Origin: Burkholderiales bacterium
GTDB lineage: Bacteria; Pseudomonadota; Gammaproteobacteria; Burkholderiales; Burkholderiaceae_C
Direction: 5' to 3'
DNA length: 64,000 nt
Assembly (NCBI GenBank): GCA_016000265.1
Contig: JAECRL010000013.1
Span: forward strand, 7,387 to 71,386
How positions within the stretch are numbered: position 1 is the first letter of the stretch; each line of letters begins with the position of its first letter. Positions 10,123 to 26,254 of the stretch are shown piece after piece. The notes beneath the pieces were generated by a model. That model worked only from the letters and a program-made list of their open reading frames with translations, ran no database searches and had not been told where the DNA came from. Position numbers and translations under genes: made by a program.

Positions 10123-10144
10123 AGCACAACGATTCAACCAGGGA

Positions 10145-10301: not shown

Positions 10302-10314
10302 TTCGAGTCGAAAC
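10300..10314. promoter_or_regulatory. Palindromic operator overlapping the -10/+1 region
   Basis: Perfect inverted repeat GTTTCGA-G-TCGAAAC; related GTTTCAAAC direct repeats at 10226 and 10236. Confidence 0.55.
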
Positions 10315-10357
10315 ATCAAGAGATGCATTCAAACATTCAACCAGGAAGGAAATTGAA

Positions 10358-11629
10358 ATGAAATCGAGAAACGCCCGAATCCTCGGCGCCATGGCCCTCG
10401 CGTTCGGCAGCCTCTCCGCTCAGGCGCACGTGGTCAGCGCGGTCAACATGATGCATTGCGACCTCATCTTGATCAACGCCGACACCGACGAAATGGTCAT
10501 GACCCCGCTGATGGACCTGCTCGGCTGGCCCGACGCCGTCTGCCAGCACAGCTGGATCCTGCCCAATGAATCCAAGGTGTTCATCTCCACCGACGCCAAC
10601 CAGGGCGTGGGCACCAAGGTGGCCGCCCTGACGATCAAAAGCATCGACTGGGCCAACAAGAAGGTCGACCTCTCGCTGGACGCCTTGATCCCCATGGGCC
10701 AGGCCGCCACCCTGTCGTCCATCCCCGTGCCGACGCAGACCAGCCCCCTGCAGCCCATCCCGCCCGTGCCCTCGGCCTGGTTCCCGAAATACTCGCAGAT
10801 TCACGGCCCCACCCTGCTGCCCGGAACCGATTTCTCCTACCTCACCGGCTACACCGACTCCAATATCTACGTCATCAACAACAAAACCAACAAACTGGTT
10901 ACCAAGCAGAGTTTCGGAAACGCCAGCCGGCAAATGCATGGCATTTATTTCAATTCCATCGGTTCTTTGGGCCTGAGCGCGCCCTACCAGTTTGACCTCA
11001 ACCAGGTCAACGTCTACCGGCCCAACCCGCGCACGGGCGTGCTGACCCAGTTGGGCGCCATCCGCCTGGGCTCGCGCGCCGAGTACGCCGCCTTCTCGCA
11101 CTTCGTGACCTGGGTGGGCAACCGCTACGCCTACATCGGCACCATGCAGTCCGACAAGACCAGCCTGACGCCGTCTGGCGCCAAGGTGATCGGCCCCAGC
11201 GTGTGGCGCCTGGACACCGCGACCCTGACGGCCACCCGCGTGCTCGGCCCCACGCCGCACGTCAACGGCACGGGCGTCTACCGCCCGGCGTCGGACGTGG
11301 CGGTGGTGGGCAACACCCTGATCGTGGCCGAAGAAGACACCCTGGACGGCGCCGTCGGCCCCGGCTACATCGCCTTCTTCGACATCGCCGACCTGAACCG
11401 CCCCCGCCTCATCAAGCGACTGGTGCCCGGCGTGGACCTGCCGGCGGACTTCAAGGTCGCCCACGTCATCAGCGTGCCCGACGACCAGGTCTTCGCCTAC
11501 GTGTCGAGCTACCACAGCAACCACCTGATCAAGCTGGAGATCGCCACGCAAAAGGTGCTGAAGGTCTACTCCGCCGCGGACGGCCTGGACATGCCGCACG
11601 GTGAGTTCATCTCGGGCAACCTGCGCTGA
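10358..11629 (+). CDS. Secreted beta-propeller protein with recurring His motifs, function unknown
   Basis: Sec signal ending AQA, mature N-terminus His24; blade-like repeats QH64SWILP, IH149GPTLLP, MH194GIYFN, SH248FVTW, SD313VAVV, AH369VISV, PH414GEFI; AGGA RBS. Confidence 0.75.
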   Translation: MKSRNARILGAMALAFGSLSAQAHVVSAVNMMHCDLILINADTDEMVMTPLMDLLGWPDAVCQHSWILPNESKVFISTDANQGVGTKVAALTIKSIDWANKKVDLSLDALIPMGQAATLSSIPVPTQTSPLQPIPPVPSAWFPKYSQIHGPTLLPGTDFSYLTGYTDSNIYVINNKTNKLVTKQSFGNASRQMHGIYFNSIGSLGLSAPYQFDLNQVNVYRPNPRTGVLTQLGAIRLGSRAEYAAFSHFVTWVGNRYAYIGTMQSDKTSLTPSGAKVIGPSVWRLDTATLTATRVLGPTPHVNGTGVYRPASDVAVVGNTLIVAEEDTLDGAVGPGYIAFFDIADLNRPRLIKRLVPGVDLPADFKVAHVISVPDDQVFAYVSSYHSNHLIKLEIATQKVLKVYSAADGLDMPHGEFISGNLR

Positions 11630-11636
11630 CCCGAAC

Positions 11637-11667
11637 GGAGGGGCGCGGGCTGGGTCAGCGCCCCTCC
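11637..11667. other. Intergenic RNA hairpin without U-tract (possible stability/processing element)
   Basis: GGAGGGGCGC (11637-11646) and GCGCCCCTCC (11658-11667) form a perfect 10-bp stem. Confidence 0.5.
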
Positions 11668-11707
11668 AACTGCGCCCAAAACACATTCAATCAGCTGAGG
11701 AATCCAC

Positions 11708-12694
11708 ATGCAAACGCAAGCCACCTCCCCGAGCGCCGCGCTCGCAGCCGCAGCCGCTGTGACCCCCGACGCCTCCCGCTCCATGGCCCTGCTGGGCCGC
11801 ATCGCCAAAGGCTGGGGCCAGCGCGCCCAGGTCAAGCAGCGCGAACTCGACCTGGCCTACGACGCCAGCCGCCCCGACTTCCTCGAGAGCCTGCTGCCCT
11901 TCCACCTGCACCCGCTCTACGAGTCGCTCGACGAGCGCACCAAGGGCCGCATCCTGTCTTGCGGCTGGCTCATCTACAACGAGAAGACGGTGGCCATCGA
12001 GCTCGACATCGTCAGCCCCGCCTGCCACGACATCCTCTACGAGAACGTGCCCGGCCTGGACACCGAGTGGGCCAAGGAGATCGTCTGCGAGACCCTGGTC
12101 GACGAGGCCTATCACCTGCTGCTGGTCAAGAACGCCAACCGCCTGACGCGCGAGGTGCGCGACCTCTCCCACATCCGCATCCCGCAGTTCGCGCTGGTGC
12201 GCCAGATGCAGGAAGAGCAAGCCCGCCACACGCCCGCCTGGGCGCCGATGCTGGTGCGCCTGAGCACCGCCGTGGTCTCCGAGATCTTCATCAGCGACTA
12301 CCTGCACCAGCTGTCGGAAGAGGAGTCGATCCAGCCGCTCAACCGCGCCACCGTGGCCGCGCACCGCCACGACGAGCTGGCGCACTCCAAGATCTTCGCC
12401 GAGCTCACACGCGCCTTCTTCCAGGCGCTGAGCAGCTCACAGAAGTCCTTCTTCGCCGAGACCCTGCCCAAGTCCATCCACTGGTTCGCCGACAAGGAGC
12501 TCGACCTGTGGCTGGACGTGCTCAAGCAACTGGGCGTGGGCCAGGCCGGCACGATCATCGAAGACAGCCGCCAGATCAACCAGGTCGCGCTGGAGCGGGT
12601 GGACTACTCCGGCGTCATCCAGTTGGCCGAAGACGTCGGCATCCTGGACACGCGCGAAGGCCGCAGTGCGTTCAGCCACGCCGGCCTGATCTGA
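11708..12694 (+). CDS. AurF/CmlI/DnfA-family non-heme diiron N-oxygenase
   Basis: E98, D132-E133-x2-H136, E192, H219-x2-D-E223-x2-H226: same spacing as the AurF ligand set E101/E136/H139/E196/H223/E227/H230, including the extra His. Confidence 0.9.
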   Translation: MQTQATSPSAALAAAAAVTPDASRSMALLGRIAKGWGQRAQVKQRELDLAYDASRPDFLESLLPFHLHPLYESLDERTKGRILSCGWLIYNEKTVAIELDIVSPACHDILYENVPGLDTEWAKEIVCETLVDEAYHLLLVKNANRLTREVRDLSHIRIPQFALVRQMQEEQARHTPAWAPMLVRLSTAVVSEIFISDYLHQLSEEESIQPLNRATVAAHRHDELAHSKIFAELTRAFFQALSSSQKSFFAETLPKSIHWFADKELDLWLDVLKQLGVGQAGTIIEDSRQINQVALERVDYSGVIQLAEDVGILDTREGRSAFSHAGLI

Positions 12695-12703
12695 GGAGCG
12701 CAC

Positions 12704-12868
12704 GTGAGCTGGGAATGCCTGATCTGCAACTGGCGCTACGACCCCGTCACCGGCGCGCCGGCGGCGGGCATCGCAGGGGGCACCCCCTTCGACGAGCTGC
12801 CGCACGACTGGACCTGCCCCGACTGCGGGGCCGCCAAAGAAGATTTTTTTGAAGTGGAGGCCCCATGA
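12704..12868 (+). CDS. Rubredoxin (54 aa, missing from ORF track)
   Basis: GTG start after GAGGAG RBS; MSWECLICNWRYDPVTGAPAAGIAGGTPFDELPHDWTCPDCGAAKEDFFEVEAP*; CxxC...WxCPxCG; TGA overlaps the next ATG. Confidence 0.95.
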   Translation: MSWECLICNWRYDPVTGAPAAGIAGGTPFDELPHDWTCPDCGAAKEDFFEVEAP

Positions 12869-13575
12869 GCCCGAAAAAAACACAGGTGGTGGCCATCCAG
12901 CACCTGGCATTCGAAGACCTCGGCTCGTTCGAGGCCGTGCTGCGCGAGCAGGACATGGACATCACCCACCTGCAAGCGGGGGTCGACGACGTGAGCCAGG
13001 CGCTGGCGCAGGCCGACATCGCCGTGGTGCTGGGCGGCCCGATCGGGGTCTACGAAACCGAGGCCTACCCCTTCTTGCTCGACGAGATCGAAGCCCTGCG
13101 CCAGCGCATGCTCGCGCGCAAGCCCACGCTGGGCATCTGCCTGGGCTCGCAGCTGATGGCGCAGGCCTTTGGCGGGCGCGTGTACCCGGGCGGCCAGAAA
13201 GAGATCGGCTGGGGGGAGCTGACGCTGTCGGACAGCGGGCGGCGCTCGCCCCTGCAGCACCTGCAAGGCGCCGCGGTGCTGCACTGGCACGGCGACACCT
13301 TCGAGTTGCCGCCGGACGCCGAGCTGCTGGCCTCGTCGCCGCTGTACGCCAACCAGGCCTTTCGCATCGGCAGCAACCTGCTGGCCCTGCAATGCCACCC
13401 CGAGGCGCAGGCGCGCACCTTCGAGCGCTGGCTGATCGGCCACGCCGGCGAGCTGGCCTCGGCGCGCCTGGACGTGCCCACCTTGCGGGCGCAGGCTCAG
13501 CGCCTGGGCCCCACGCTGGAGCGCGCCAGCCAGGCCATGCTGCGCGAGTGGCTCGCCGACCTGGTCTGGGCCTGA
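12865..13575 (+). CDS. Stand-alone class I glutamine amidotransferase (DnfC-like)
   Basis: QHLAFEDLG, VLGGPIGVY, LGICLGSQ (Cys nucleophile), LHWHGDTF, LQCHPE (His-x-Glu). Confidence 0.9.
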   Translation: MSPKKTQVVAIQHLAFEDLGSFEAVLREQDMDITHLQAGVDDVSQALAQADIAVVLGGPIGVYETEAYPFLLDEIEALRQRMLARKPTLGICLGSQLMAQAFGGRVYPGGQKEIGWGELTLSDSGRRSPLQHLQGAAVLHWHGDTFELPPDAELLASSPLYANQAFRIGSNLLALQCHPEAQARTFERWLIGHAGELASARLDVPTLRAQAQRLGPTLERASQAMLREWLADLVWA

Positions 13576-14280
13576 ATGCCAGCCACCTCGCCCGTCGTCC
13601 ACCTCGGTGTGGTCGAGCGCGTGCTGTGCGGCACGCCCCGGCCCCTGCCCGGGCGCGGCCGCAGCTCGCTGGGGCGCACCGAGGTGGACGCCCTCGACGT
13701 CGGGCTGCTGGGCGTGGCGGGCGACGACTTCGGTGACCGCACCCACCACGGCGGCAGCGAGAAGGCCCTGCACCAGTACCCCGCCGAGCACCTGCCCCGG
13801 TGGCAGCAGGCGTTGCCCGATGACGCCGCGCGCTTCCAGGTCGGCGCCTTTGGCGAGAACCTCTCCAGCCGCGGCCTCGACGAGCACGGCCTGTGCATCG
13901 GCGACACGCTGCGCATCGGCTCGGCCACCCTGCAGGTCTCCCAAGGCAGGCAACCCTGCTGGAAACTGGGGGCGTACTTCGGCCGCGACGACCTGGCCAG
14001 CCTGGCCCAGGCCAGCGGGCGCCTGGGCTGGTACCTGCGCACGCTGGAGCCCGGTCGCATCCGCGCCGCCGACGCCATCGAGTTGCTGGCGCGCCCCAAC
14101 CCGGACTGGAGCGTGGACCGCGTGCACCGCGCCGTCTTCGAGCGGCGGCACACCCCGGCCGAGCTGCAGGCGCTGGCCGAGCTGCCCGGCTTGAGCCCGC
14201 GCTGGCGCGCGCTGTTTGCGCGCCGACTGGCCTCACCCCACGAGGAGGAGCCCACCGCCCGGCTGACCGGCCCGCCATAA
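13576..14280 (+). CDS. MOSC domain protein, YiiM-like
   Basis: HHGGSEKALHQY, FGENL, SQGRQPCWKL, GWYLRTLEPG and C-terminal 3-alpha region. Confidence 0.88.
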   Translation: MPATSPVVHLGVVERVLCGTPRPLPGRGRSSLGRTEVDALDVGLLGVAGDDFGDRTHHGGSEKALHQYPAEHLPRWQQALPDDAARFQVGAFGENLSSRGLDEHGLCIGDTLRIGSATLQVSQGRQPCWKLGAYFGRDDLASLAQASGRLGWYLRTLEPGRIRAADAIELLARPNPDWSVDRVHRAVFERRHTPAELQALAELPGLSPRWRALFARRLASPHEEEPTARLTGPP

Positions 14281-14290
14281 TCACCGCACG

Positions 14291-14914
14291 ATGAGCAAGA
14301 AGACACCTGAATGGGAGAGCCTGACGCACCGCCACGCCCCCGTCGGGTCCGAGCAGGCGTTCGAAGCCACGGCGCTCAGCCTCGGTGAGCTGTTCCTGTA
14401 CGAAACGCACCGCTTCGCCACCCGGCATCGCCTCGACGTGGTGCACCTGAGGGCGTTGAGCTTCCTGCAGCAGGCCAACAAGTACAGCGACACCTCGGTG
14501 GCGCTGGTTGACCACCTGGGGCTGACCAAGGGCACCGTCTCCAAGTCGATCGCGCTGCTGGCCCAGCGCGGCCTGCTGCGCAAGGTGCCCGACCTGGTGG
14601 ACCGACGCCGCCTCCACCTGCAGCTCACCGACGCGGGCCAGGAGACCGCCCGGGCGTTCGCCGAGCACCTGCAGTGGTCGCGCCTGACGGCCTTGCTGAC
14701 GCCCGAGCAGCGTGCGGCGGTGGACGGGGCGCTCAAGACCATCCTGCGCACCAGCCAGCAACTCAACGAGCGGCGCACCTTCGGCCTGTGCCGGACCTGT
14801 CGCCGCTTCCGCCCCGAAGGCGACGGCGGCTTCTGCCTGCTCACCCAGGAGGCGCTGACGCCTCACCAGACCCACCAGCGCTGCCGGGAGCACGAGCCGC
14901 CCCCCGCGCGCTGA
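14291..14914 (+). CDS. MarR family regulator with C-terminal Cys/His cluster
   Basis: LGLTKGTVSKSIALLAQRGLL...DRRRLHLQLT winged HTH; C-terminal FGLCRTCRRF...FCLL...RCREH. Confidence 0.85.
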   Translation: MSKKTPEWESLTHRHAPVGSEQAFEATALSLGELFLYETHRFATRHRLDVVHLRALSFLQQANKYSDTSVALVDHLGLTKGTVSKSIALLAQRGLLRKVPDLVDRRRLHLQLTDAGQETARAFAEHLQWSRLTALLTPEQRAAVDGALKTILRTSQQLNERRTFGLCRTCRRFRPEGDGGFCLLTQEALTPHQTHQRCREHEPPPAR

Positions 14915-14938
14915 CACGACTCGAAAGAGACCCCGCCC

Positions 14939-15172
14939 ATGCACGCGCAATACCGCATCGACATCCTCAAGGACGGCGCCCTCTGGGGTGCGCTGCACAT
15001 CGACCACCCCCAGTCCGAGGCCGCGCTCCACGAGATGCTGGCCGTGCTGCGGGGCCAGGGCTACACCTGCCGCGTGATGCAAGCCAGCGGCGAGCGCCGG
15101 CTGCTGGAGAGCACGCCCGCGGGCGTCTCCTTGCTGTTTCGCGAACCGATCTTCCAGGCCCGAGCCGACTGA
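14939..15172 (+). CDS. Small hypothetical protein (77 aa)
   Basis: Protein-like ORF with host codon usage, GERRLLESTPAG...REPIF; follows marR in the same orientation. Confidence 0.6.
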   Translation: MHAQYRIDILKDGALWGALHIDHPQSEAALHEMLAVLRGQGYTCRVMQASGERRLLESTPAGVSLLFREPIFQARAD

Positions 15173-15182
15173 GCGGCAGCGC

Positions 15183-15199
15183 CGCACCACTGCGGTGCA
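15183..15199. promoter_or_regulatory. NtrC-type binding site
   Basis: cGCACC-ACTGC-GGTGCa fits TGCACC-N5-GGTGCA. Confidence 0.6.
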
Positions 15200-15216
15200 A
15201 AACCCCATCCTGGGGC

Positions 15217-15232
15217 AGGCACACCGTTTGCA
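15217..15232 (+). promoter_or_regulatory. Sigma54 (-24/-12) promoter of nirBD
   Basis: aGGCACACCGTTTGCa: GG-N10-GC with the TGGCAC/TTGC consensus. Confidence 0.7.
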
Positions 15233-15252
15233 TGGTGAGTGACGCGTGTCAA

Positions 15253-15348
15253 CGGGGTGAAGTCGCCCCGCCCCTCGCGCACACGCTCCGCTGACGATGG
15301 CGGACGCAGCCGGATGCCCGCGCCACCGCGGGCCGTCCCGGTCTTGTT
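15253..15348 (+). promoter_or_regulatory. Putative ANTAR (NasR) dual-hairpin leader with competing terminator
   Basis: Hairpin 15253-15270 (loop GAAGTC) and 15287-15304 (loop GACGAT), both hexaloops with G4; downstream GCCCGCG/CGCGGGC stem plus TCTTGTT; NIT-ANTAR regulator encoded in the operon. Confidence 0.5.
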
Positions 15349-15455
15349 CACCCCCACCTCACACAGAGCCCCACCCCCGCGGCCAGCGCCCTCGCCTGCC
15401 AGCGGCGGCCTCTCTGTGCCCCCTCATCGCCCCATCAGCGCCCCAGGAGCACCCC

Positions 15456-17966
15456 ATGAAAATCATCGTTGTTGGCCACGGCATGGTCGGCCACCAGTTC
15501 CTCGACAGCCTGGCTGCGACCGGCTTGACGGGCTGCGAGGTCACCGTCCTGTGCGAAGAGGTCCGCCCCGCCTACGACCGCGTGCACCTCTCCGAATTCT
15601 TCGCCGGCAAGAGCGCCGAGGACCTGTCCCTGGTCGAGCCGGGCTTTTTCGAGCGCACCGGCTTCGACCTGCGCCTGGCCGCCCGCGCCGCCAGCGTCGA
15701 CCGGCGCACCAAAACGGTCACCACCACCGACGGCGAACAACTGAGCTACGACAAGCTGGTGCTGGCCACCGGCTCCAACCCCTTCGTGCCCCCGGTGCCG
15801 GGCCGCGACCGCCCGCACTGCTTCGTCTACCGCACCATCGAAGACCTCGAGCGCATGCAGGCCTCGGGCGCGAAGTCCCGCACCGGCGTGGTCGTCGGTG
15901 GCGGCCTGCTGGGCCTGGAGTGCGCCAAGGCGCTGCGCGACATGGGCCTGGAAACCCACGTCGTCGAGTTCGCCCCGCGCCTGATGGCGGTGCAGGTCGA
16001 CGAAGGCGGTGGCCGCATCCTGCGCAGCAAGATCGAAGAGCTGGGCGTGCAGGTGCACACCGGGCGCAACACGCTGGAGATCGTCGACGGCCGCGAGGCC
16101 CGCCACCGCATGGTGTTCGCCGACGGCTCCCACCTGGAGACCGACATGATCGTGTTCTCCGCCGGCATCCGCCCGCGCGACGAGCTCGCCCGCCAGAGCG
16201 TGCTGGCCGTGGGCGCGCGCGGCGGCATCGCCATCGACAACCACTGCCGCACCAGCGACCACGACGTCTACGCCATCGGCGAGTGCGCGGCCTGGCACGA
16301 CCAGACCTTCGGCCTGGTGGCACCGGGCTACGACATGGCCCGCGTGGCCGCCAAACACATCGCGGGCAACAGCGAAGCGGCTTTCACGGGCGCCGACATG
16401 AGCACCAAGCTCAAGCTGATGGGGGTGGACGTGGCCAGCATCGGCGACGCCCACGGCAAGGCCCCGGGCTGCCGCAGCTACCAGTACGTCAACGAGGGCA
16501 AGCAGGTCTACAAGAAGATCGTGACCAGCGCGGACGGCAAGACCCTGCTGGGCGCCGTGCTGGTGGGCAACGCCGACGAATACGGCGACCTGCTGCAGAT
16601 GGCGCTCAACGGCATCGCCCTGCCCGAGGACCCCGAGTTCCTCATCCTGCCCAGCAGCGACGGCCAGGCCAAGCCCGGCCTGGGCGTGGACGCCCTGCCC
16701 GACAGCGCCCAGATCTGCTCGTGCAACAGCGTGAGCAAGGGCCAGATCTGCGCGGCCGTGGGCGAAGGCGCCACCGACATCGCCAAACTCAAGGCATGCA
16801 CCAAGGCGGGCGCGACCTGCGGCGGCTGCGTGCCCCTGGTCACCCAGGTGATGAAGGCCGAGATGGCCAAACGCGGCATGGCGGTCAACAACCACCTGTG
16901 CGAGCACTTCGCTTACTCGCGTCAGGAGCTGTTCCACCTCATCCGAGTCGGCCAGATCAAGACCTTCGACGAGCTGCTGACCCAACACGGCAAGGGCCTG
17001 GGCTGCGACGTCTGCAAGCCCACGGCGGCCAGCGTGCTGGCGTCGGTGTGGAACGACTTCGTGCTCAAGAAGGACCTCGCCAGCCTGCAAGACAGCAACG
17101 ACTACTACCTGGGCAACATCCAGAAAGACGGCAGCTACTCGGTGGTGCCGCGCATGCCCGGTGGCGAGGTCACGCCCGACGGCCTGATCGCCGTGGGCCA
17201 GGTCGCCAAGAAGTACGGCCTCTACACCAAGGTCACGGGCGGCGCGCGGGTCGACATGTTCGGCGCCCGCGTCGAGCAGCTGCCGCTGATCTGGGAGGAG
17301 CTCATCGCCGCGGGCTTCGAGTCGGGCCACGCGTACGGCAAGTCGCTGCGCACGGTCAAGAGCTGCGTGGGCAGCACCTGGTGCCGCTACGGCGTGGGCG
17401 ACAGCGTGGGCCTGGCCGTGGAGCTGGAGAACCGCTACAAGGGCCTGCGCGCGCCGCACAAGATCAAGTTCGGTGTCTCGGGCTGCACGCGTGAATGCGC
17501 CGAAGCGCAAGGCAAGGACATCGGCGTGATCGCCACCGAGAAGGGCTGGAACCTGTACGTGTGCGGCAACGGCGGCATGAAGCCCCGCCACGCCGAGCTG
17601 TTCGCCTCCGACCTGAGCAAGGACGAGCTCATCCGCCTGATCGACCGCGTGCTGATGTTCTACGTGCGCACCGCCGACCGCCTGCAGCGCACCAGCACCT
17701 GGCGCGACAACCTCGAAGGCGGCCTGGCCTACCTGCAGGGCGTGATCCTCAACGACAGCCTGGGCCTCAACGCCGAGCTCGAAGCGCAGATGCAGCACGT
17801 GGTCAACACCTACCAGTGCGAGTGGAAGACCGCCGTGACCACGCCCGAGGTGCGCCAGCGCTTCCGCAGCTTCGTCAACAGCGACCAGGCCGACGAGCAC
17901 ATCGTGTTCGTGGAAGAGCGCGGCCAGATCCGCCCGGCCCGAGCCGAAGAACGCACGACCGCCTGA
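15456..17966 (+). CDS. nirB: Assimilatory NAD(P)H nitrite reductase large subunit
   Basis: MKIIVVGHGMVG, GGGLLGLE, CSCN...CGGC BFD domains, KSCVGSTWCRYG and SGCTRECAEAQ siroheme/4Fe-4S motifs; AGGAG RBS. Confidence 0.97.
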   Translation: MKIIVVGHGMVGHQFLDSLAATGLTGCEVTVLCEEVRPAYDRVHLSEFFAGKSAEDLSLVEPGFFERTGFDLRLAARAASVDRRTKTVTTTDGEQLSYDKLVLATGSNPFVPPVPGRDRPHCFVYRTIEDLERMQASGAKSRTGVVVGGGLLGLECAKALRDMGLETHVVEFAPRLMAVQVDEGGGRILRSKIEELGVQVHTGRNTLEIVDGREARHRMVFADGSHLETDMIVFSAGIRPRDELARQSVLAVGARGGIAIDNHCRTSDHDVYAIGECAAWHDQTFGLVAPGYDMARVAAKHIAGNSEAAFTGADMSTKLKLMGVDVASIGDAHGKAPGCRSYQYVNEGKQVYKKIVTSADGKTLLGAVLVGNADEYGDLLQMALNGIALPEDPEFLILPSSDGQAKPGLGVDALPDSAQICSCNSVSKGQICAAVGEGATDIAKLKACTKAGATCGGCVPLVTQVMKAEMAKRGMAVNNHLCEHFAYSRQELFHLIRVGQIKTFDELLTQHGKGLGCDVCKPTAASVLASVWNDFVLKKDLASLQDSNDYYLGNIQKDGSYSVVPRMPGGEVTPDGLIAVGQVAKKYGLYTKVTGGARVDMFGARVEQLPLIWEELIAAGFESGHAYGKSLRTVKSCVGSTWCRYGVGDSVGLAVELENRYKGLRAPHKIKFGVSGCTRECAEAQGKDIGVIATEKGWNLYVCGNGGMKPRHAELFASDLSKDELIRLIDRVLMFYVRTADRLQRTSTWRDNLEGGLAYLQGVILNDSLGLNAELEAQMQHVVNTYQCEWKTAVTTPEVRQRFRSFVNSDQADEHIVFVEERGQIRPARAEERTTA

Positions 17967-17989
17967 GCCCCGCTGCAAGGAGACCCCAC

Positions 17990-18358
17990 ATGAGCCACGC
18001 CGCCCCCCACGCTGCCTCCACGTCGACGTCGACCTGGACCCCCGTCTGCGCCGCCGACGACATCCTGCCCAACACCGGCGTTTGCGCCCGCATCGAGGGC
18101 ACCCACGTCGCCATCTTCCGAGTTGGCGCGGACCGCTTCTTTGCCATCGACAACGTCGACCCCAAATCGGGCGCCAGCGTGCTCTCGCGTGGCCTGGTGG
18201 GCAGCCTGGGCGAGCGCATCGTGGTCGCCTCGCCGCTCTACAAGCAGCACATCGACCTGCGCACCGGCGAGTGCGTGGAGTCGCCCGAGCTGTCGGTGCG
18301 CGCGCACGCGTTGCGCATCGAGGCCGGTCGGGTGCAGGTTCAACTGAGCCGGGGCTGA
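17990..18358 (+). CDS. nirD: Nitrite reductase small subunit
   Basis: WTPVC...ILPNTGVCA...VAIFR...DNVDPKSGASVLSRGLVG...VASPLYKQH; AAGGAG RBS. Confidence 0.95.
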   Translation: MSHAAPHAASTSTSTWTPVCAADDILPNTGVCARIEGTHVAIFRVGADRFFAIDNVDPKSGASVLSRGLVGSLGERIVVASPLYKQHIDLRTGECVESPELSVRAHALRIEAGRVQVQLSRG

Positions 18359-18472
18359 GGGCGCATGCCTGCGGGCGGCGGCGGGCAAACGGGGGAAAAT
18401 GAGGCTGGCGGGGCGCGTCCCCTGCCGCTTGACCCCGTCGACTCCCCCCACCGCTCGCACCGTCGCCCGCCC

Positions 18473-19810
18473 ATGCCCCTGTCCGTCTCCAGCCTCGTCC
18501 TGCGCGCCAAGGAGCTTGAGCTCGAAGCCCTGCACCACCTCGCCGCCCGCGTCGAGCTCGCCGACGTCATCGGACAGCTCATCCACGCGCTGCAGCGCGA
18601 GCGAGGCGCCACCAGCGTGCACCTCGCCTCGGGCGGGCAGCGCTTCGCCGCCGAGCGGCTGGCTGCGCTGGACGAGGCCGTGCGCATCGAGGCCCGCCTG
18701 CGTGAGCTCTTCGAGGTGCAACGGGGGCCGCAACATGGCGCCAACGCGCGCACCCTGTCGCTGATGGCTTGGGTGCTGCTCGACCTGGACGCGCTGTCGG
18801 GCGGGGGAGAAGGCGGGGGGGAAGGCGGGGGAGCGGAAAAGGGCACCGCCCCCGGCCTGCGCGCGCGCATCGAACAACGCAGCCCCACCGCGCACGAGGC
18901 CGTGGCCGCCTTCAGCCGCCTGATCGCCGGCCTGCTGGAGCTGCTCTTTCACGTCGCCGACGCGTCGCGGCACCCCGGCATCGCGCGCCTGCTGGTGGCC
19001 TTCGTGCACCTGGCGCAGGGCAAGGAAGCGGCCGGGCAGGAGCGCGCCGTCGGGGCCCAACTGTTTGCCTCCGGCCAGTGCGACGAGGCCGAGCAGCAAC
19101 GCGTGGTGCACCTCATCGACGCGCAGGAGCGCAGCCTGGTCACCTTCGAGGAGTTCACCGACCCCACCTTGCGCGCGCGCTGGCAGCAGCTGCAGCTCAC
19201 GCCCGAGGTCGCGCAACTGGAGCGCCTGCGCCGCACCCTGTGCACGGCGCGCCCGCCCGCGCGGCTGGACACCGCGCTCAGCGAAGCCTGGTTCGCGCTG
19301 ACCAGCGCGCGCATCGGCGAGATGGAGCAGATGCTGGCCGCGCTGGTGCACGCGCTGCGACACGACTGCCGCGAACAGATCCGCGCCACCGAGCAGGACC
19401 TGCTGGACTCCGAGGGCCTGCTGCAACGCCTGCGCGACAACCCGCCTGGCCACCCCGGCGCGGTCGACCGCTTCTTCCAGGACGGCCAGCCCCACGCTGG
19501 CGCTCCCGTGCTGTCGGCCTTGCCACAAGGCGAGGCGCAGGCCGCCACGTGGGTGCAGCTGCTGCAAGACCAGTCAAGCCGGCTGGCCCGCATGGAGGCG
19601 GAGCTGGAGGGGGCGCAGCGGGCCCTGCAGGAGCGCAAGGTCATCGAGCGGGCCAAGGGCGCCTTGATGTCGAAGCTGGGCCTCAGCGAAGAAGAAGCCT
19701 TGCGCACCCTGCAGAAGGCCTCGATGGACCAGAACCGCCGCCTGCTGGACGTGGCCCAGGCCACGCTGGCCTTGCCCGACCTGGCGTTCGCTGCGGCGCA
19801 GCGGGGCTGA
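18473..19810 (+). CDS. nasR: Nitrate/nitrite-sensing antiterminator (NIT + ANTAR)
   Basis: LIHALQRERGAT, QGKEAAGQERAVG NIT motifs; C-terminal ERKVIERAKGALM...EEEALRTLQKASMDQNRRL ANTAR. Confidence 0.88.
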   Translation: MPLSVSSLVLRAKELELEALHHLAARVELADVIGQLIHALQRERGATSVHLASGGQRFAAERLAALDEAVRIEARLRELFEVQRGPQHGANARTLSLMAWVLLDLDALSGGGEGGGEGGGAEKGTAPGLRARIEQRSPTAHEAVAAFSRLIAGLLELLFHVADASRHPGIARLLVAFVHLAQGKEAAGQERAVGAQLFASGQCDEAEQQRVVHLIDAQERSLVTFEEFTDPTLRARWQQLQLTPEVAQLERLRRTLCTARPPARLDTALSEAWFALTSARIGEMEQMLAALVHALRHDCREQIRATEQDLLDSEGLLQRLRDNPPGHPGAVDRFFQDGQPHAGAPVLSALPQGEAQAATWVQLLQDQSSRLARMEAELEGAQRALQERKVIERAKGALMSKLGLSEEEALRTLQKASMDQNRRLLDVAQATLALPDLAFAAAQRG

Positions 19811-19814
19811 GGGG

Positions 19815-20648
19815 TCAGCCAGCCTGCGCCCGATGCCGCTTCAACCACGCCGACGGCGAAAGACCGACGTGGCGAGAAAAGGCCCGCGTGAACGCGCTGG
19901 CGCTGCCATACCCCACCTCCAGGGCCGCCAGCCTCATCGGGCGCCCCGCCCGCAACAACCCTTGCGCCACGGTGACGCGCCAGGCAGCCAGGTGCTCACC
20001 CGGGGTGCAGCCCACCACCGCCCGGAAGCGCACGGCGAACCGAGCACGCGACATGCCCGCGTGCTCGGCCATCGCCTCCAGCCCCCAGTCCACCTCGGGT
20101 CGCTCATGCATCGCAACGAGCGCCTTCGAAAGCCGGGGGTCGGCCAGGCCCGCCAGCGTGCCGCCCTGCGTGAGGCCCCGGTCCATGCAGTGCCGAAGGA
20201 GCCGGATCAACAAGACCTCGCACAGGCGATCCAGCGCCGCCTGACGCCCGCTCAGGGGCGTGAAAGCCTCCTCGTCCAGCAAAGCCAGCAAGGCCGCTGA
20301 ACCCGGCAGGTCCGCCAACCGAATCTGCACCACGCTGGGGAGCGAATCGGAGATGGGGTTGGCGCCCCCCACGCCAAAACGGATGTTGGCGCACACCACG
20401 TCCGCGCCCTCGTGCTCGCCCGTGATCAGCTGGTGGGCCTCCGGGCGGGGCATGAACACCAAGGTGGGCTCGTCGATGAGCAGGCCACCTGGCTCGCCCC
20501 CGCTCAAACGCGCCGGCCCCCGTTTGATCAGGTGAACGTGACCGCACCAGGCGTCGCGCTCGAAATGGTGAACCCCGCAGATCCGCCCGACGTGGAAGAC
20601 CCCCGCCTGAATGGCAAAGCGTTGCAACAACAGGGAGAGCCGGTCCAT
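19815..20648 (-). CDS. AraC family regulator with Cupin_6 domain, RclR-like (copy 2)
   Basis: MDRLSLLLQRF, GRICG, DVVCA; C-terminal AraC HTHs (GMSRARF, VGYGSASAFTRAF). Confidence 0.85.
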   Translation of the reverse strand: MDRLSLLLQRFAIQAGVFHVGRICGVHHFERDAWCGHVHLIKRGPARLSGGEPGGLLIDEPTLVFMPRPEAHQLITGEHEGADVVCANIRFGVGGANPISDSLPSVVQIRLADLPGSAALLALLDEEAFTPLSGRQAALDRLCEVLLIRLLRHCMDRGLTQGGTLAGLADPRLSKALVAMHERPEVDWGLEAMAEHAGMSRARFAVRFRAVVGCTPGEHLAAWRVTVAQGLLRAGRPMRLAALEVGYGSASAFTRAFSRHVGLSPSAWLKRHRAQAG

Positions 20649-20657
20649 GGGTGAAAT

Positions 20658-20684
20658 CGAAACGCCTGATCAACTGAACGATAC
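20658..20684. promoter_or_regulatory. Putative AraC tandem binding site
   Basis: CGAAAC (20658) and CGATAC (20679), 21-bp period, same placement relative to the regulator start as at 7920. Confidence 0.4.
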
Positions 20685-20751
20685 CAAAGAACACCCAAGG
20701 TTTCGCGCTTCGGCTCAAAGTTCAGGGACACCCCAACCCCAAGGAGCCCCC

Positions 20752-21324
20752 ATGCCCCCCCGTCCCTACCTCAACACCCTCCACGCGGTCTGCGCAGGCT
20801 CAGCCACCCCGGCCCAGCAAGCCCTGCTCGATCAAGCCCGGCAGCAAGTGGGCTTCATCCCCAACATGTACGCCAACATGGTCAACGAGCCCGCCGTCCT
20901 GAGCACCTACCTCCACGGCTACAGCCTGTTTCGACAGCAGTCCGGCTTGTCGTCCGCCGAGCAGGAGGTGACCTTCCTGGCCATCAGCCGGGCCAACGGC
21001 TGCGACTACTGCACCGCCGCGCACAGCATGATCGCGGACCGGGTCTCGAAGGTGCCCCCCGCCACCTTGGCGGCGATCCGCCAGGGACACGCCATCCCGG
21101 ATGCCCGCCTGGCCGCCCTGCACGCCCTGGCCACCGAGATGGCGTCGACCCAAGGCCGTCCCACCACCGCCACCCTGGCGGCCTTCCTGAACGCGGGGTT
21201 CGAAGAGCGTCACATCCTGCACGTCATCCTGGCCACGGCCGTCAAGGCGCTCAGCAACTTCTCCAACCACGCGTTCGCAACGACGCTGGACGAGCGCTTT
21301 GCGGCCCACGCCATGCCGACCTGA
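20752..21324 (+). CDS. AhpD/CMD family peroxidase-like protein (copy 2)
   Basis: GFIPNMYANM, EQEVTFLAISRANGCDYCTAAH; AAGGAG RBS. Confidence 0.88.
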   Translation: MPPRPYLNTLHAVCAGSATPAQQALLDQARQQVGFIPNMYANMVNEPAVLSTYLHGYSLFRQQSGLSSAEQEVTFLAISRANGCDYCTAAHSMIADRVSKVPPATLAAIRQGHAIPDARLAALHALATEMASTQGRPTTATLAAFLNAGFEERHILHVILATAVKALSNFSNHAFATTLDERFAAHAMPT

Positions 21325-21394
21325 GGTCGACGTGTCAGGTTTTCCAGGCCTGGGCCGACTGAGTCCAGGTCACCTCCCACCACAGGACCTCACC

Positions 21395-21772
21395 ATGCTC
21401 AAAACCCTGTTGATCTCTGCCCTGACCTTCGCGGCCTCCCAGGCCTTCGCCCTGAACATCACGCCGTACAGCGCCGAGGCGCTGAAGTCCGCCCAGGCCG
21501 CCGGCAAGCCCGTGGCGCTGCACTTCCACGCCAACTGGTGCAGCACCTGCCGCACCCAGGAGCGGGCCTTTCTGGGCATGAAGGGGGCCCCGGCGCTCAA
21601 AGACGTCACCCTGTTCGTCGTCGACCACGACAAGGAAAAAGCCCTCAGGCAGGCACTGAAGGTGCGCAGCCAGTCCACCCTCATCGTCTACCAGGGCAGC
21701 CAGCAGACGGCCTTCGTCGCCGGCGAAACCGACCCCGCTGCCTTGCAAGCCGCCCTGAAGTCGGCCCTCTGA
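21395..21772 (+). CDS. Exported thioredoxin
   Basis: Signal peptide ending AFA; FHANWCSTC motif. Confidence 0.85.
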   Translation: MLKTLLISALTFAASQAFALNITPYSAEALKSAQAAGKPVALHFHANWCSTCRTQERAFLGMKGAPALKDVTLFVVDHDKEKALRQALKVRSQSTLIVYQGSQQTAFVAGETDPAALQAALKSAL

Positions 21773-21783
21773 GGAGCGCCCCC

Positions 21784-22518
21784 ATGTCCACCTCCTTGTC
21801 CCTGACGCAACTGGGCCTGAGCCTGGCTGCGGGCGGCCTGACCACGCTGTCCCCTTGTGTCCTGCCGCTGCTGCCGCTGGTGGTGGGCGGCGCCACCCAG
21901 CGCAACCGGCTGGCGCCCGTGGCCATGGGCGTGGGCATGGCCTCGGCCTTTGCCCTGATCGGCGTGGCGGTGGGCGCGCTGGGCCCGGTGCTCGGACTGG
22001 ACACCGACCACGTGCGCACCTTCGGCGCGGTGCTGCTGATCCTGCTGGCCGCGGTGTTCTGGGTCCCCGCCTGGGGCGAGCGCTTCGCGCAGTGGGCCAT
22101 GCCCCTGGCGACGTCGGCTCAGAACGCCAGCGCCGACCTGGACGCCGGCTCCCTCCAAGGCGCCTTCCTGCTGGGCGGTGTGCTGGGGCTGGTGTGGAGC
22201 CCGTGCTCCGGTCCGCTGCTGGCCTCGGCCCTGGCGCTGGTGGTCAGTGAAGGCGGGGCGGTGTCGGGCGCCATCCTGCTCGGTGCCTTCGGTGTGGGCG
22301 CGGCGCTGCCGCTGGTGGGCGTTGCGTACGCTTCGCGCTCCGGGTTCGAACGCTGGCGCGACCGCGCGCTGCGCAGCATGGACGGCGTCAAAAAGGGCTT
22401 CGGTGCCCTGCTGGGCCTGGCCGGGGTGGCCATCCTCATGGGGTGGGACAAGGCCCTGGAAGCGTGGGCCCTCGACCACCTGCCCGAGGCCTGGACCGGC
22501 TTGAGCAGCATGATCTGA
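21784..22518 (+). CDS. CcdA/DsbD-type transmembrane thiol-disulfide electron transporter
   Basis: LSPCVLPLLP and WSPCSGPLL redox Cys motifs; multi-TM. Confidence 0.88.
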   Translation: MSTSLSLTQLGLSLAAGGLTTLSPCVLPLLPLVVGGATQRNRLAPVAMGVGMASAFALIGVAVGALGPVLGLDTDHVRTFGAVLLILLAAVFWVPAWGERFAQWAMPLATSAQNASADLDAGSLQGAFLLGGVLGLVWSPCSGPLLASALALVVSEGGAVSGAILLGAFGVGAALPLVGVAYASRSGFERWRDRALRSMDGVKKGFGALLGLAGVAILMGWDKALEAWALDHLPEAWTGLSSMI

Positions 22519-22536
22519 GGGCGCTCACGGGCCATG

Positions 22537-22568
22537 AAAAAAGGGCCATCCGTTGACCGGATGGCCCT
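22537..22568 (-). terminator. Rho-independent terminator for the minus-strand micropeptide gene (possibly bidirectional)
   Basis: Perfect 11-bp stem AGGGCCATCCG/CGGATGGCCCT with an A6 tract on the left. Confidence 0.75.
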
Positions 22569-22597
22569 CGCGTTTTCACGCTGCGGTCAAGGCCGCA

Positions 22598-22729
22598 TCA
22601 GTTCAGGCAGCAGGCCAGTTGCGCCAGCCAGCAAGCCAGGTCGGCACAGCAGGCATCGGAGGCCCAGGCGGCGGCACTCAGGCTCATCAGCCCGAATGCG
22701 GCGAAGACCCTCGTCGATTTTTTGCTCAT
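22598..22729 (-). CDS. Cys-rich secreted micropeptide (43 aa, missing from ORF track)
   Basis: MSKKSTRVFAAFGLMSLSAAAWA-SDACCADLACWLAQLACCLN*; AGGAG RBS 8 nt upstream, signal peptide and own terminator. Confidence 0.8.
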   Translation of the reverse strand: MSKKSTRVFAAFGLMSLSAAAWASDACCADLACWLAQLACCLN

Positions 22730-22807
22730 GTTGCAAGCTCCTGGTGAGGTGTCAAAGGACCGGTTGTGCGCAGGCCCTTTGCCTGCGCGGCTTCGAGGCT
22801 TGCGCGC

Positions 22808-22828
22808 TCAGTTCGATCCATCCACAGC
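22808..22828 (-). pseudogene. Displaced original 3' tail of lipA (AVDGSN-stop)
   Basis: GCT GTG GAT GGA TCG AAC TGA continues lipA in frame if 22829-25185 is removed. Confidence 0.75.
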
Positions 22829-22835
22829 TGTGAAA

Positions 22836-22921
22836 GTCTCGCTCAATGGGAGAAAAATCGGGCTGGTTGGGGCGATTTGTCTCGGAGCGGGAGAAAACAG
22901 TCTCGCACTGGAAGGAAAAAA
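22836..22921 (+). repeat. Left-end array of putative transposase-binding repeats
   Basis: GTCTCG at 22836, 22879, 22900, each followed by a GGAGAAAA-like tract (spacing 43 and 21 bp). Confidence 0.75.
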
Positions 22922-23051
22922 CCAGCCAGCCGACTGATCGCGAGCCATGCCCCAATGCCCCCAACTTTGACCAGACGCCGCGCAATCAGCCTCCGTGTTG
23001 CCGCTCATTTGGCGGAGCCCTCCACGATCCACAATGCAAACGCGATCCGTG

Positions 23052-24172
23052 TCAGCTACCGCTCGGATCAGGCGATGATCTTGCAGCTTCAGCCAAGCTC
23101 ATCTGGGCGAATGGTCCGTACAGTTTGATGTCCAGGGCTTCTTGATCGACCGCACGGGTCTCGCAAGAGGCCGCGAGGGCGTCTAGCAAGCTATCGCCTG
23201 TTCGTGTCCAAGCTGTCTGCAAAGCCTTGCCGCTGAGGCCGATGTAGGGATGCGATGAATCACGCTCAAACGTGGGAAGCAAGAGGGCCACCTATACGTA
23301 CTGAACCGGTCAAGGAGCCCGACCAAGACTACCAATGCCGCACTGATGCCTCTTTGGCGCTGGACCGCACCATTCGCCCTCTCTCTAGCATCGATCTGCT
23401 CAGGGTTAGCCTTCCCGCTGAGTTCAAGCCCCGTCGCAATCTGTAACTCGGCGCATTCGCCTGCCACGAACTTATGGGGATCAACAGCTGGGCAGTCGGT
23501 GACAGTAAGCTCAAAATCGTCGAGGTCGATTGCCTCTTCCACGGGAACATCAAGCTGCGCGCGAAGCTTTGCTTCGATGTCCTTCTTGGCAGCTTCCGGC
23601 AGCGCGGCCAGGGAGACGCTACTGACCATCACCGTTCCGCCTGCGGCCTTGGGGACTTCGAAGGATGCGTCTGACGCAAAGACGAGGCCCGCCTTTGCAA
23701 GGTCCGAGAACCGGCGGCGATGGACGTACAACTTTGCAAGAATCGACGGTTTTACCTTTTTGGGTTTGGATTTCTTGCCCGTTTTACCCTTGCCTGCGGC
23801 TGGCGCGGTTGCTGGGTCGGCATGGCTGTCAGCGGCAGGGTCGTTCACCGCCTCGTCTTCTGGCTTGTCTGCCTTCAGCAAGCTCGGTAGCGTCCACTTG
23901 AGGGCCGACTCGTTTTTCTTCAGTTGGACGAACCGAACCGTCGTCGGGTCGGTAGAGGAATTCAGAAGAGCAATGTCCTGCTGCCACTCAAGGACGACGG
24001 CATAGTCGCCCGGATTTCGGTGCGCTCGCAGTGCCTCCAGCACTGCGAGCCACACCTGAAAGCTGAAGCCCTTGATGGCATGCCTACCGCCGGTCTCGTC
24101 GCCCTCGAAGTCATGGAAAAGGTCCGTGAGGACCTTCTGCAGCGGTGGTTCCGTCAACGTATTTGCTGTCAT
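23052..24172 (-). pseudogene. Cap4/DUF4297-type PD-(D/E)xK dsDNA nuclease, probably frameshifted near 23290
   Basis: G35-FSF-Q39, E62-WQQ-D66, Q83-L-K85 motifs; main ORF 23183-24172; protein-like frame 23052-23291 joins after a single-base shift at TAT AGG TGG; AT-richer than host. Confidence 0.7.
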
Positions 24173-24470
24173 CAAGCGTCTGGTGCGTGCACAAAACAAC
24201 GGAAAGGCCTGTGTCTCGCGAAATCCCTACTGCATGCGAGCATTGAGTCGTGAAGGATCAATACATCCGAAATATTAGGTATGTAGACTCAACAGTAGCG
24301 ATTATCGCGCCAATTTTTTCGCTAAAGGGTGCCCACAGGGCTGGTCACTGCAGCCCTTCTCATTGCGAATTGTTGATCGACCGCTGCGTGCAATAGCCGT
24401 CGCTGGTCAACCCATGGTTCAGCGTCTGCAATCAGCCTAAAGCTGACCGATGCCCGCGCCCCACCCTACC

Positions 24471-25059
24471 ATGGCGGGCTCACATCCACGAACCGAGACA
24501 CCGAAGCCCAATTCCGTCAGGATGTCTTGCAGAACGCGGTCAAAGCCACCGTCCTGTCGCGATGGCAGGACCTGGAGCTCCCCAATGCCTGGCTGGTGGC
24601 TGTCTGTTCCAGACAGTCTGGAACCTGCAACGCGGCCGCCCGCCTGGCCAGGGCATCAAAGACCACGACCTGTTCTATTTCGATCCCCCCGACCTGAGCG
24701 AGGCCGCTGAAGCGCAGGCCCAGTCCCGGGCAAGGTCCCTGCTGGCTGACCTTGACGCCACGGTTGAAGTGGCCAATCAGGCACGTGTCCACCTCTGGTA
24801 CTCAGGGCACTTCGGGCGACCATGCCCACCGCTGCAGTCGAGCGAAGATGGCATTCGGCGCTTTCTCGTGCTGGAAGCGTTTGTGGGCATTCGCCCCCAT
24901 GAATGCCACGCACCGTTTGGCTTCTCGGGGCTGTACGCGGGCTCGTTCACACCCAACCCACTCACGCCGTATCCGGAGCTGTTTGCCGCCAAGGTGGCCA
25001 GCTACCGAGCACGCTGGCCCACATCAGGGCGCGCGCCGACGCTGCTGAGCGAGACCTAG
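24471..25059 (+). pseudogene. DUF925 family nucleotidyltransferase-like gene, frameshifted
   Basis: QDVLQNAVKATVLSRWQDLELPNAWLVA in one frame, GCLFQTVWN...GIKDHDLFYFD...NQARVHLWY in the next; consistent with loss of one GGCT unit at ~24597-24600; 5' start unclear. Confidence 0.75.
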
Positions 25060-25110
25060 CCCGGGTCCACGCCGGTCACGCACGGCGCCCAAACCCTCGC
25101 GCCAAGCCCG

Positions 25111-25173
25111 TTTTTCTCCGCCTCTTCGAGATTTTTCTCGCCCACTTCGAGATTTTCTCTCTCAGTTCGAGAC
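25111..25173 (-). repeat. Right-end array of putative transposase-binding repeats
   Basis: Three contiguous TTTTCTC-N-TCGAGA units, CGAGA at 25127, 25148, 25168 (21 and 20 bp period). Confidence 0.8.
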
Positions 25174-26193
25174 ATTCACAACAGCCACCCCAGCCTGCAT
25201 GGCCTGCTGGTCGGCGTGGTAGCTCGAGCGCACCATGGCGCCCACCGCCGCGTGCGTGAAGCCCAAACGCTTGGCCTCTTCTTCGTACGCCTTGAAGGTG
25301 TCGGGGTGCACATAACGGCGCACCGGCAGGTGGTGGCCTGAAGGCGCCAGGTACTGGCCGATGGTGATCATGTCGATGCCGTGCTCACGCATGTCGCGCA
25401 TGACCTGGTAGACCTCTTCGTCGGTCTCGCCCAGGCCGACCATGATGCCGCTCTTGGTCGGCACGTCGGGGTGCAGGGCCTTGAACTTCTTGAGCAGGTT
25501 CAGGCTGAACTGGTAGTCGGAGCCCGGGCGCGCTTCCTTGTACAGGCGCGGCGCGGTCTCCAGGTTGTGGTTCATCACGTCGGGCGGCGCGGCCTTGAGG
25601 ATCTCGAGTGCGCGCTCGTCACGGCCACGGAAATCGGGCACCAGGATCTCGATGCGCGTGGCCGGCGACTGCTCGCGAACCTGCTTGATGCACTCCACGA
25701 AGTGCCCGGCGCCGCCGTCGCGCAGGTCGTCGCGGTCCACCGAGGTGATGACCACGTACTTGAGCTTGAGCGCCGCGATCGTCTTGGCCAGGTTGGCCGG
25801 CTCGTTGACGTCGAGCGGGTCGGGGCGGCCGTGGCCCACGTCGCAGAAGGGGCAGCGGCGCGTGCACTTGTCGCCCATGATCATGAACGTGGCCGTGCCG
25901 TGGCCGAAGCATTCGCCGATGTTGGGGCACGAGGCCTCTTCGCACACCGTGTGCAGCTTGTGCTCGCGCAGGATGTTCTTGATCTCGTAGAAGCGCGTGC
26001 TGGGCGAGCCGGCCTTGACGCGGATCCAGTCGGGCTTCTTGAGCACTTCGCCGGCCGGCACGATCTTGATGGGGATGCGCGCGGTCTTGGCCTGGGCCTT
26101 TTGTTTGGCCGACGGGTCGTAGGCGGCGGGAGCCCCGGAGGCAGGCGCTTGTGGCGCAGCCGGGGTCGAAGAGGAGGGGGGGGTCTCGGACAT
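25162..26193 (-). CDS. lipA: Lipoyl synthase (last codons supplied by the mobile element end)
   Basis: [28 protein letters not shown] motifs. Confidence 0.97.
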
Positions 26194-26254
26194 CCCGAAA
26201 CTGTAGCCCATCGGGCGGCCGCGCGGGTGTGTGGTGTGCCGCAAGGCCCCAGGG

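Follow-up and report, generated by a model that had tools for sequence, protein, structure and literature searches.

A probable internally deleted Tn7-like element in the last codons of lipA of a Burkholderiales bacterium, and full-size relatives at the same site

Tn7 transposes with TnsA and TnsB, the AAA+ protein TnsC and a target selector of the TniQ/TnsD family. Its TGT..ACA ends carry asymmetric arrays of sites of about 20 bp, it makes a 5-bp target duplication and it uses one fixed site (attTn7) at the 3' end of the conserved housekeeping gene glmS, with its contiguous-site end facing the gene; islands accumulate there by repeated use of the site. We analyzed a stretch of 64,000 nucleotides from a Burkholderiales bacterium (assembly GCA_016000265.1, contig JAECRL010000013.1; hereafter the window), which contains a short element without transposase next to lipA, the gene for lipoyl synthase. 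With a probability of roughly nine in ten, this element (22829-25180) is derived by internal deletion from a Tn7-like transposon and is no longer autonomous; the last codons of lipA are the specific target of its family, which inserts there in a single orientation. The Tn7 features named above are all shared by this lipA family, and every testable feature of a Tn7-like transposon was found except autonomy.

The lipA family differs from Tn7 in several respects. Its target is lipA and not glmS, and it inserts inside the last codons of the gene, where its right end gives a new tail and stop codon, whereas Tn7 lands downstream of the glmS stop codon. TnsC is of the short TniB type (295 aa) and TniQ has about 350 aa, compared with roughly 500 aa for the TnsD of Tn7. 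No TnsE was seen in the family, and the tns operon occupies the target-distal end; from the window copy, tns genes are missing altogether.

Among solved structures, the closest TnsB and TnsC are those of Tn6677 and the type I-F3 CRISPR-associated transposons (CASTs), with which the TniQ fold is also common. Unlike these, the lipA family targets a fixed protein-coding site, and gene lists around the tns operons of four elements contain no cas genes or CRISPR array next to tniQ. Tn6022 and the AbaR-type elements in comM are also Tn7-like, have a short TniQ (369 aa) and insert within a conserved gene; natural derivatives of this group include internally deleted ones with a defective transposase. 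However, Tn6022 disrupts comM and needs TnsF, with which its short type of TniQ pairs (Faure et al. 2023, PMC10293859), whereas lipA stays intact and no TnsF-like gene was seen. Transposons of the Tn5053/Tn402 type (TniA, TniB, TniQ, TniR) share the TniB-type ATPase, TniQ and the 5-bp duplication. In contrast to them, the lipA family has TnsA, so that cut-and-paste transposition is expected, has no TniR resolvase beside tniQ, carries multi-site asymmetric ends instead of 25-bp inverted repeats, and targets the end of a chromosomal gene and not res sites.

The element had first been noticed in a preliminary description made from the letters of the window, which read it as a mini element of the Tn7/TnsB family and placed it at 22824-25185. 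That span includes both copies of the target-site duplication; the element proper lies between them and has exactly the length of 2352 bp that had been proposed. The features on which the description relied are real: TGTG...CACA termini, an inverted match of 12 out of 13 positions (TGTGAAAGTCTCG versus TGTGAATGTCTCG on the other strand), the duplication ACAGC, three contiguous repeats at one end and three unevenly spaced ones at the other. The inverted match of the termini reaches 28 nt at 75% identity. The repeat unit, present in three copies per end, is TCTCG-N8-GAGAAAA. At the left end the copies start at 22837, 22880 and 22901 (spacing 43 and 21 nt), giving one site, a gap and two adjacent sites, and at the right end they occupy 25112-25131, 25133-25152 and 25153-25172 (minus-strand starts 25172, 25152 and 25131, spacing 20 and 21 nt). 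Allowing at most one mismatch, the motif was found four times in the window, always at the two ends, with 0.03 occurrences expected from dinucleotide shuffles. The G+C content of the element is 59.1%, versus 70% in both flanks. The right-end sequence is present in a single copy in the host genome, where no further copies or nearby parent of the element were detected, and an end-pattern search of 400 genomes of the bacterial family gave no other copies or parent either. With its single genomic copy, the element does not show the several dispersed copies mobilised in trans that are typical of miniature inverted-repeat transposable elements.

When one genome per species was scanned for the end pattern, Aquabacterium alone gave the same ends. 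In the uncultured Aquabacterium metagenome-assembled genome (MAG) CAYJXE010000007 (G401) they bound an element of 50,168 bp (11561-61728) with the duplication ACGAC, the right end of which abuts lipA (identities of the ends in Table 1). This element contains an operon of tnsA, tnsB, a tnsC of the TniB type and tniQ at 20992-25631. Pfam matches are Tn7_TnsA-like_N and C for TnsA, Mu-transpos_C, HTH_Tnp_Mu_2 and a weak rve for TnsB, TniB for TnsC (5e-61), and TniQ (3.5e-29). Since no nested end-like clusters were found inside the 50 kb, it is a single element. A second genome, Aquabacterium ANIsp_002 (G404), has the tns operon in common with G401 at 95-99% amino-acid identity; here the right end adjoins lipA on another contig than the operon, and the duplication is CCCAC. 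The search for an autonomous parent that the preliminary description had proposed was thus successful, and it linked the ends to a DDE transposase. Judged by homology, the linkage to TnsA, TnsB, TnsC and TniQ assigns the ends to a Tn7-like transposon.

Comparison with solved structures in the PDB gave Tn6677 I-F3 TnsB (4e-35), ShCAST TnsB (8e-28) and Tn7 TnsB (3e-10) as matches of the TnsB protein, and the TnsC of Vibrio cholerae (1e-11) as the closest relative of TnsC. An AlphaFold model of TniQ (mean predicted local distance difference test 82.7) matched I-B CAST TniQ, TnsD and PseCAST TniQ, a fold search with a predicted structure that confirms membership in the TniQ/TnsD family. More than 1000 TniQ homologues were found at E<=1e-20, mostly of 335-370 aa, across the Burkholderiales.

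Members of the family seated at lipA were present in all six genomes checked, from four genera, with the insertion in the last codons of the gene. In Polaromonas sp. UC242_47 the element (369237-388490, 19.25 kb, duplication GACAC) abuts lipA with its right end, its TniQ is 50% identical and its tnsA begins about 130 bp from the left end; apart from an insertion that splits the operon between tnsB and tniB, it is complete. The tns operon is convergent with lipA in Collimonas pratensis and Acidovorax sp. NCPPB 4044, at distances of 18 and 30 kb, respectively. In both, lipA is bordered by a right end made of three contiguous repeats of 21-22 bp, and the Acidovorax element has CGCAC on both sides.

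Altogether, ten occupied lipA sites from the four genera were compared, and the right end faces lipA in every one of them. At each site the lipA frame continues across the duplication into the right end, from which its last codons and stop are taken: VNVSN* in Aquabacterium, VNNQ* in Polaromonas, VKNQ* in Collimonas and VNDSK* in Acidovorax. In the window, the last six codons and the stop (25162-25180, ...VNVSN*) are encoded in this way. Since the right end supplies these codons, the lipA frame stays open. The distance between the duplication and the conserved sequence GCCTGCTGGTC (codons DQQA) is 13 nt at eight of the ten sites, 12 nt at one and 16 nt in the window. The family therefore has a fixed attachment site and a fixed orientation beside a conserved gene, as Tn7-like elements do. 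The two large surveys of Tn7-like elements are silent on a lipA landing site (PMC8649781; PMC10293859), and our literature search found no paper that links Tn7-like elements, TnsB or TniQ to lipA or lipoyl synthase. The site thus appears to be undescribed.

An unoccupied site, which the preliminary description had expected to exist in a relative, was located by a left-flank search of the genus. In the genome G440 (same genus, flanks 93-95% identical) the left flank is joined directly to lipA, which ends in GCCGTCGATGGCTCGAACTGA (AGVAVDGSN*). Four substitutions distinguish this junction from the predicted sequence, and the single copy of the duplication reads ACGGC. The first three genomes of the genus that were inspected have unrelated DNA downstream of lipA and no such site, and an exact 30-mer of the joined flanks is absent from the Joint Genome Institute metagenome contigs. 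Together with the tns genes of G401, this junction supports the assignment of the window element to the Tn7/TnsB family.

The same comparison uncovered traces of earlier insertions. Immediately outside the left end of the window copy lies a 36-nt relic of an older right end, 78% identical to 25145-25180 and in the same register (local alignment score 27, higher than in all 2000 shuffles). The relic is also found at the G440 junction, where it is better preserved, and in a shorter form in G408. Since it was already there before the site was occupied, it is older than the present insertion, and the lipA site has been used more than once. The window copy inserted 3 nt into the relic, which explains its 16-nt register and an extra codon. 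In G401 the flank reads CTTCGAGACATCCACC followed by ACGAC, compared with GTTCGAGACATTCACA followed by ACGAC at the right end. In the metagenome contig L048, a near-intact right-end terminus is followed by ACCAC and a left end, so two elements stand there in tandem. No relic was found at the Polaromonas and Acidovorax sites. Naive relatives have short, unrelated lipA tails (AGVQV*, AGVV*, AGVTGTGAV*). A further likeness, between 22772-22797 and the third right-end repeat, was discarded, since the window lacks 300 bp that G440 has and this deletion accounts for part of the likeness; only the 36-nt relic is solid. An older left end was sought further left in the window at up to three mismatches and none was found.

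Only two Pfam domains lie inside the window element, Cap4_nuclease (23183-24172, minus strand) and NTP_transf_6 (24562-25059), which agrees with the earlier statement that no tnsABC or tniQ is present there. When TnsA, TnsB, TnsC and TniQ of the parent family were compared by tblastn with the whole assembly (18 contigs, 3.56 Mb), no credible homologue was obtained; the sole match was of TnsC at the level of the P-loop (26%, E 0.002, contig C11). A six-frame search of the genome for TnsB was likewise negative. The window copy is therefore a non-autonomous member of the family, stranded in a genome without tns genes; it is inert alone and has probably decayed in place.

The course of this decay could be read from metagenome contigs. 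Window positions 22822-23268 are 98.4% identical to contig JACCDV011102772 (L047), which covers the left end and 440 bp. Contig L035 matches 23404-24584 with its positions 1181-1 (99.7%) and 23266-23409 with its positions 3674-3531 (100%), and the 2349 bp skipped in between comprise the 3' third of lmuA together with almost the whole of lmuB; the two are a pair of Lamassu defence genes. A short microhomology (GGCTA/GCCTA) marks this junction at 23404-23409. A second, larger deletion begins shortly beyond lmuB and reaches to within about 440 bp of the left end. The DNA lost with it would have included the tns operon: over its far part, L035 matches cargo on the right-hand side of the G401 element at 95.8% identity, and as that element bears tns genes, we infer that the parent of the window copy carried them too. 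From left to right, the window element thus consists of the left end with 437 bp, the large deletion, 144 bp, the 2349-bp deletion, lmuA codons 1-254, a nucleotidyltransferase gene and the right end. Where the preliminary description had spoken of a non-autonomous or internally deleted element, the two deletions mapped against L035 and L047 identify it, by sequence comparison, as an internally deleted derivative of a full-size element.

Both cargo genes of the window copy are pseudogenes. The open reading frame with lmuA has 329 aa, compared with 424-430 aa in homologues; its genuine part comprises the first 254 codons (23410-24172), and the remainder is fusion junk. Contigs with the closest LmuA homologue (P0002) carry lmuA (429 aa), a 611-aa gene, a PIN-TPR-GreABC gene and a SNIPE/T5orf172 gene; the 611-aa gene is taken to be lmuB from its size and position, without a family match. 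Going by these homologies, an intact LmuA and LmuB pair would be present on the parent contigs and not in the window. In the nucleotidyltransferase gene, the frame is shifted by the loss of 4 nt between 24596 and 24597. This deletion is also found in the contigs L052 and L055, and the frame is intact in L051, so it is no assembly error. Since the element has no transposase and both cargo genes are broken, gene-based annotation would miss it, as had been pointed out before.

L052 and L055, on which lmuA has its full length and is accompanied by lipA, the right end and the nucleotidyltransferase gene, are identical to the window element at 1776 of 1777 bases (99.94%), whereas the adjoining lipA DNA is only 88-90% identical, showing that the same element recently entered different hosts. 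In related hosts, lipA is the seat of a full-size parent with a Lamassu defence pair and other cargo. Three of the four Logan contigs with intact lmuA-lmuB (L035-L038) stop at window position 24584 and the fourth 65 nt short of it. This stop is 12 nt from the frameshift in the nucleotidyltransferase gene and suggests a polymorphism at this position in the source samples.

Table 1. Features of the element and its surroundings. Positions are those of the window; strand in brackets.
Feature	Position	Description	Evidence
Target-site duplication, left copy	22824-22828	ACAGC	read directly
Target-site duplication, right copy	25181-25185	ACAGC	read directly
Left end	22829-22922 (+)	TGTG terminus and three putative TnsB-binding repeats	93-96% identical to the left ends of G401/G404
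Right end	25111-25180 (-)	three contiguous putative TnsB-binding repeats and CACA terminus	last 71 bp 100% identical in G401 and G404
Left arm from parent	22829-23265 (+)	ends at the breakpoint of the large deletion	
144-bp segment, downstream of lmuB in the parent	23266-23409 (-)	between the two deletion junctions	100% identical to L035 3531-3674
Truncated lmuA	23183-24172 (-)	Lamassu Cap4-type nuclease	Pfam Cap4_nuclease 1.4e-16, PADLOC LmuA 1.4e-33
NTP_transf_6 nucleotidyltransferase pseudogene	24527-25059 (+)		Pfam PF06042 1.8e-35 on the downstream frame
lipA (lipoyl synthase)	25162-26244 (-)		Pfam Radical_SAM, LIAS_N
Relic of older right end	22791-22826 (+)	outside the left end, overlaps the left duplication by 3 nt	

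By analogy with Tn7, transposition of the full-size elements would begin with TniQ binding the conserved lipA codons that start 13 nt from the duplication. TniQ would recruit TnsC, which would position TnsA and TnsB, and these would cut and paste the element with its contiguous-site end towards lipA, generating the 5-bp duplication. Since the six end sites of the window copy are as intact as those of autonomous copies, a cognate helper could in principle move it.

The intact ends raise the question of whether the 2352-bp unit arrived already gutted, mobilised in trans into lipA by a helper that has since been lost. Its ends match those of autonomous copies in quality, and the right-end relic shows that an older element once occupied the site. 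The host genome, however, contains no helper, the two deletion junctions were seen in no other contig, and lmuA is undeleted in every metagenome contig with this cargo (four of four from Logan and two of two from NCBI). In Tn7, the intact ends of a resident element inhibit insertion nearby (target immunity), and if this applied here, such a resident would have hindered the arrival of a second unit. We regard an already gutted arrival as unlikely, and decay of a full-size element in place as the better account.

Two further origins are far less probable still. A Mu-like transposable prophage would leave a similar remnant, since Mu shares the TG..CA ends, the 5-bp duplication, the one-gap-two arrangement of sites on the left and the three contiguous sites on the right; this architecture fits Mu and Tn7 equally, and the parent TnsB itself matches two Mu-named Pfam families. 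Yet the autonomous relatives encode TnsA, a TniB-type ATPase and TniQ beside the transposase, the closest solved transposases are the TnsB proteins of CASTs and Tn7, and the use of one fixed site in one orientation is unlike Mu; MuA and MuB accompanied by phage genes and a near-random choice of target, as expected of a Mu-like phage, are not what was found. We give just as little credit to an integrative island moved by a site-specific recombinase, for which the likeness between left flank and right end would be an attL/attR repeat derived from the lipA 3' end. The 36 nt concerned are in direct orientation and include an exact 10-mer (CTCAGTTCGA). No integrase is present, however, the termini are inverted TGTG/CACA sequences with repeat arrays, and the exact duplication is only 5 bp long. 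The flank likeness is already there at the G440 empty site and so predates the insertion, which by itself contradicts such an island; it is absent in Polaromonas and Acidovorax, and the tandem junction of L048 likewise speaks against it.

Several points weigh against the reading as an internally deleted Tn7-like copy. The roles of TniQ, TnsC, TnsA and TnsB are assigned from homology, and, in a reversal of the Tn7 arrangement, the tns operon stands at the end that is remote from the target gene. Both G401 and G404 are MAGs, although the Polaromonas and Collimonas examples are on contigs of 4.3 and 5.7 Mb, and the parent of the window copy is known only as separate metagenome contigs for the left, right and middle parts. 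The assembly is 93% complete (18 contigs), so that a helper may be encoded on the missing DNA. Finally, TniQ is short, and a separate target selector is possible; short TniQs often need a partner selector (Faure et al., PMC10293859). No partner selector is evident beside tniQ, where the gene that follows directly is a convergent, regulator-like cargo gene on the other strand (YafY/WYL-looking by eye, without a family scan). An 'orf282' after tniQ was considered as target selector and rejected, being an antisense reading of this gene.

Beyond the Tn7-like assignment, the relics point tentatively to a cycle at the lipA site, a proposal we hold to be possible though less probable than not. The site would be occupied repeatedly, and the right end would be more than a transposase site, joining lipA and outlasting the element. 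Insertion would remove the natural lipA tail, and the terminal 20-35 bp of the right end would become lipA codons and stop; as these bases lie within lipA, selection would keep them while the rest of the element is deleted. The stages of such a series would be a full element, the gutted mini element of the window, a remnant without detectable left end and a solo right-end relic (G440, G408). The third stage would be represented by the genome G403 (contig C11, about 127363-136100), which has a two-repeat right end beside lipA, followed by about 8.7 kb of genes absent from the window genome; its left end was not detected in the whole genome, and it looks like an intermediate of decay. New insertions at the same register would then account for the tandem junction in L048 and for the relics outside the left ends of the window copy and G401. 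In addition, a TniQ of about 350 aa may read the lipA codons directly, without a partner selector, and target immunity may allow a gutted copy whose six sites are intact to prevent further insertions, so that it would serve the host as a plug against new 20-50-kb elements; both would be new if true.

The window element itself is an ordinary decay product, and its value is that of a marker for a seemingly undescribed, repeatedly used landing site: it marks a hot spot at which islands of 20-50 kb, rich in defence genes, enter Burkholderiales genomes at lipA. For the Tn7 field this adds a landing site that is apparently chosen with a short TniQ, and a transposon end that re-codes the C-terminus of the target gene. 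The natural decay series would explain "scar" sequences beside lipA. For genome engineering, the family represents another fixed-site, orientation-specific integration system that could be reconstituted.

Some further observations concern the cargo and the surroundings of the site. The left end and tnsA of the G401 and G404 elements are separated by 9.4-10.9 kb of cargo, which in G401 encodes, among others, a type II methyltransferase, a CARF-like protein and an ORC-CDC6-like protein with a calcineurin-type phosphoesterase. The genes that split the Polaromonas tns operon (L039) between tnsB and tniB are one of 1765 aa with a weak SACS match and one of 99 aa. In the window, about 19 kb between lipA and the conserved backbone (approximately 3900-22800) are non-syntenic with genomes of the same genus, and the genes found downstream of lipA in those genomes map to positions 7089-11263 of contig C13 of the host assembly. 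A CcdA/DsbD-like gene in this region (21538-22518) has 81-82% amino-acid identity to cargo inside the G401 and G404 transposons. A small gene on the minus strand (22586-22729) encodes a signal peptide and a Cys-rich peptide of about 20 residues (MSKKSTRVFAAFGLMSLSAAAWASDACCADLACWLAQLACCLN). In G440, G408, L047 and A. parvum, a second, paralogous gene of this kind lies between the first and the lipA site, and the 300-bp stretch that holds it is deleted in the window.

Pattern hits in Bradyrhizobium (L015) and in the metagenome contigs L043, L045, L046, L049, L050, L054 and L056-L059 have low similarity to either end and were treated as unrelated. Six of these contigs (L043, L045, L046, L050, L057 and L058) share TGTGAACGTCTCGGACTGGTCGAGAAAA and an identical outer flank (…CAGCTTATCAATTTG) with no more likeness to either end, and probably represent an unrelated conserved sequence that fits the search pattern. 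In A. parvum B6 (NZ_LFRI01000363), a 46-kb contig on which no tns genes, lipA or right end were found, two left ends at 9841 and 24380 lie 14.5 kb apart in the same orientation, the inner one cut after 48 bp. This is probably a nested or tandem remnant, and the metagenome contig Ga0180008_1000721 has the same arrangement.

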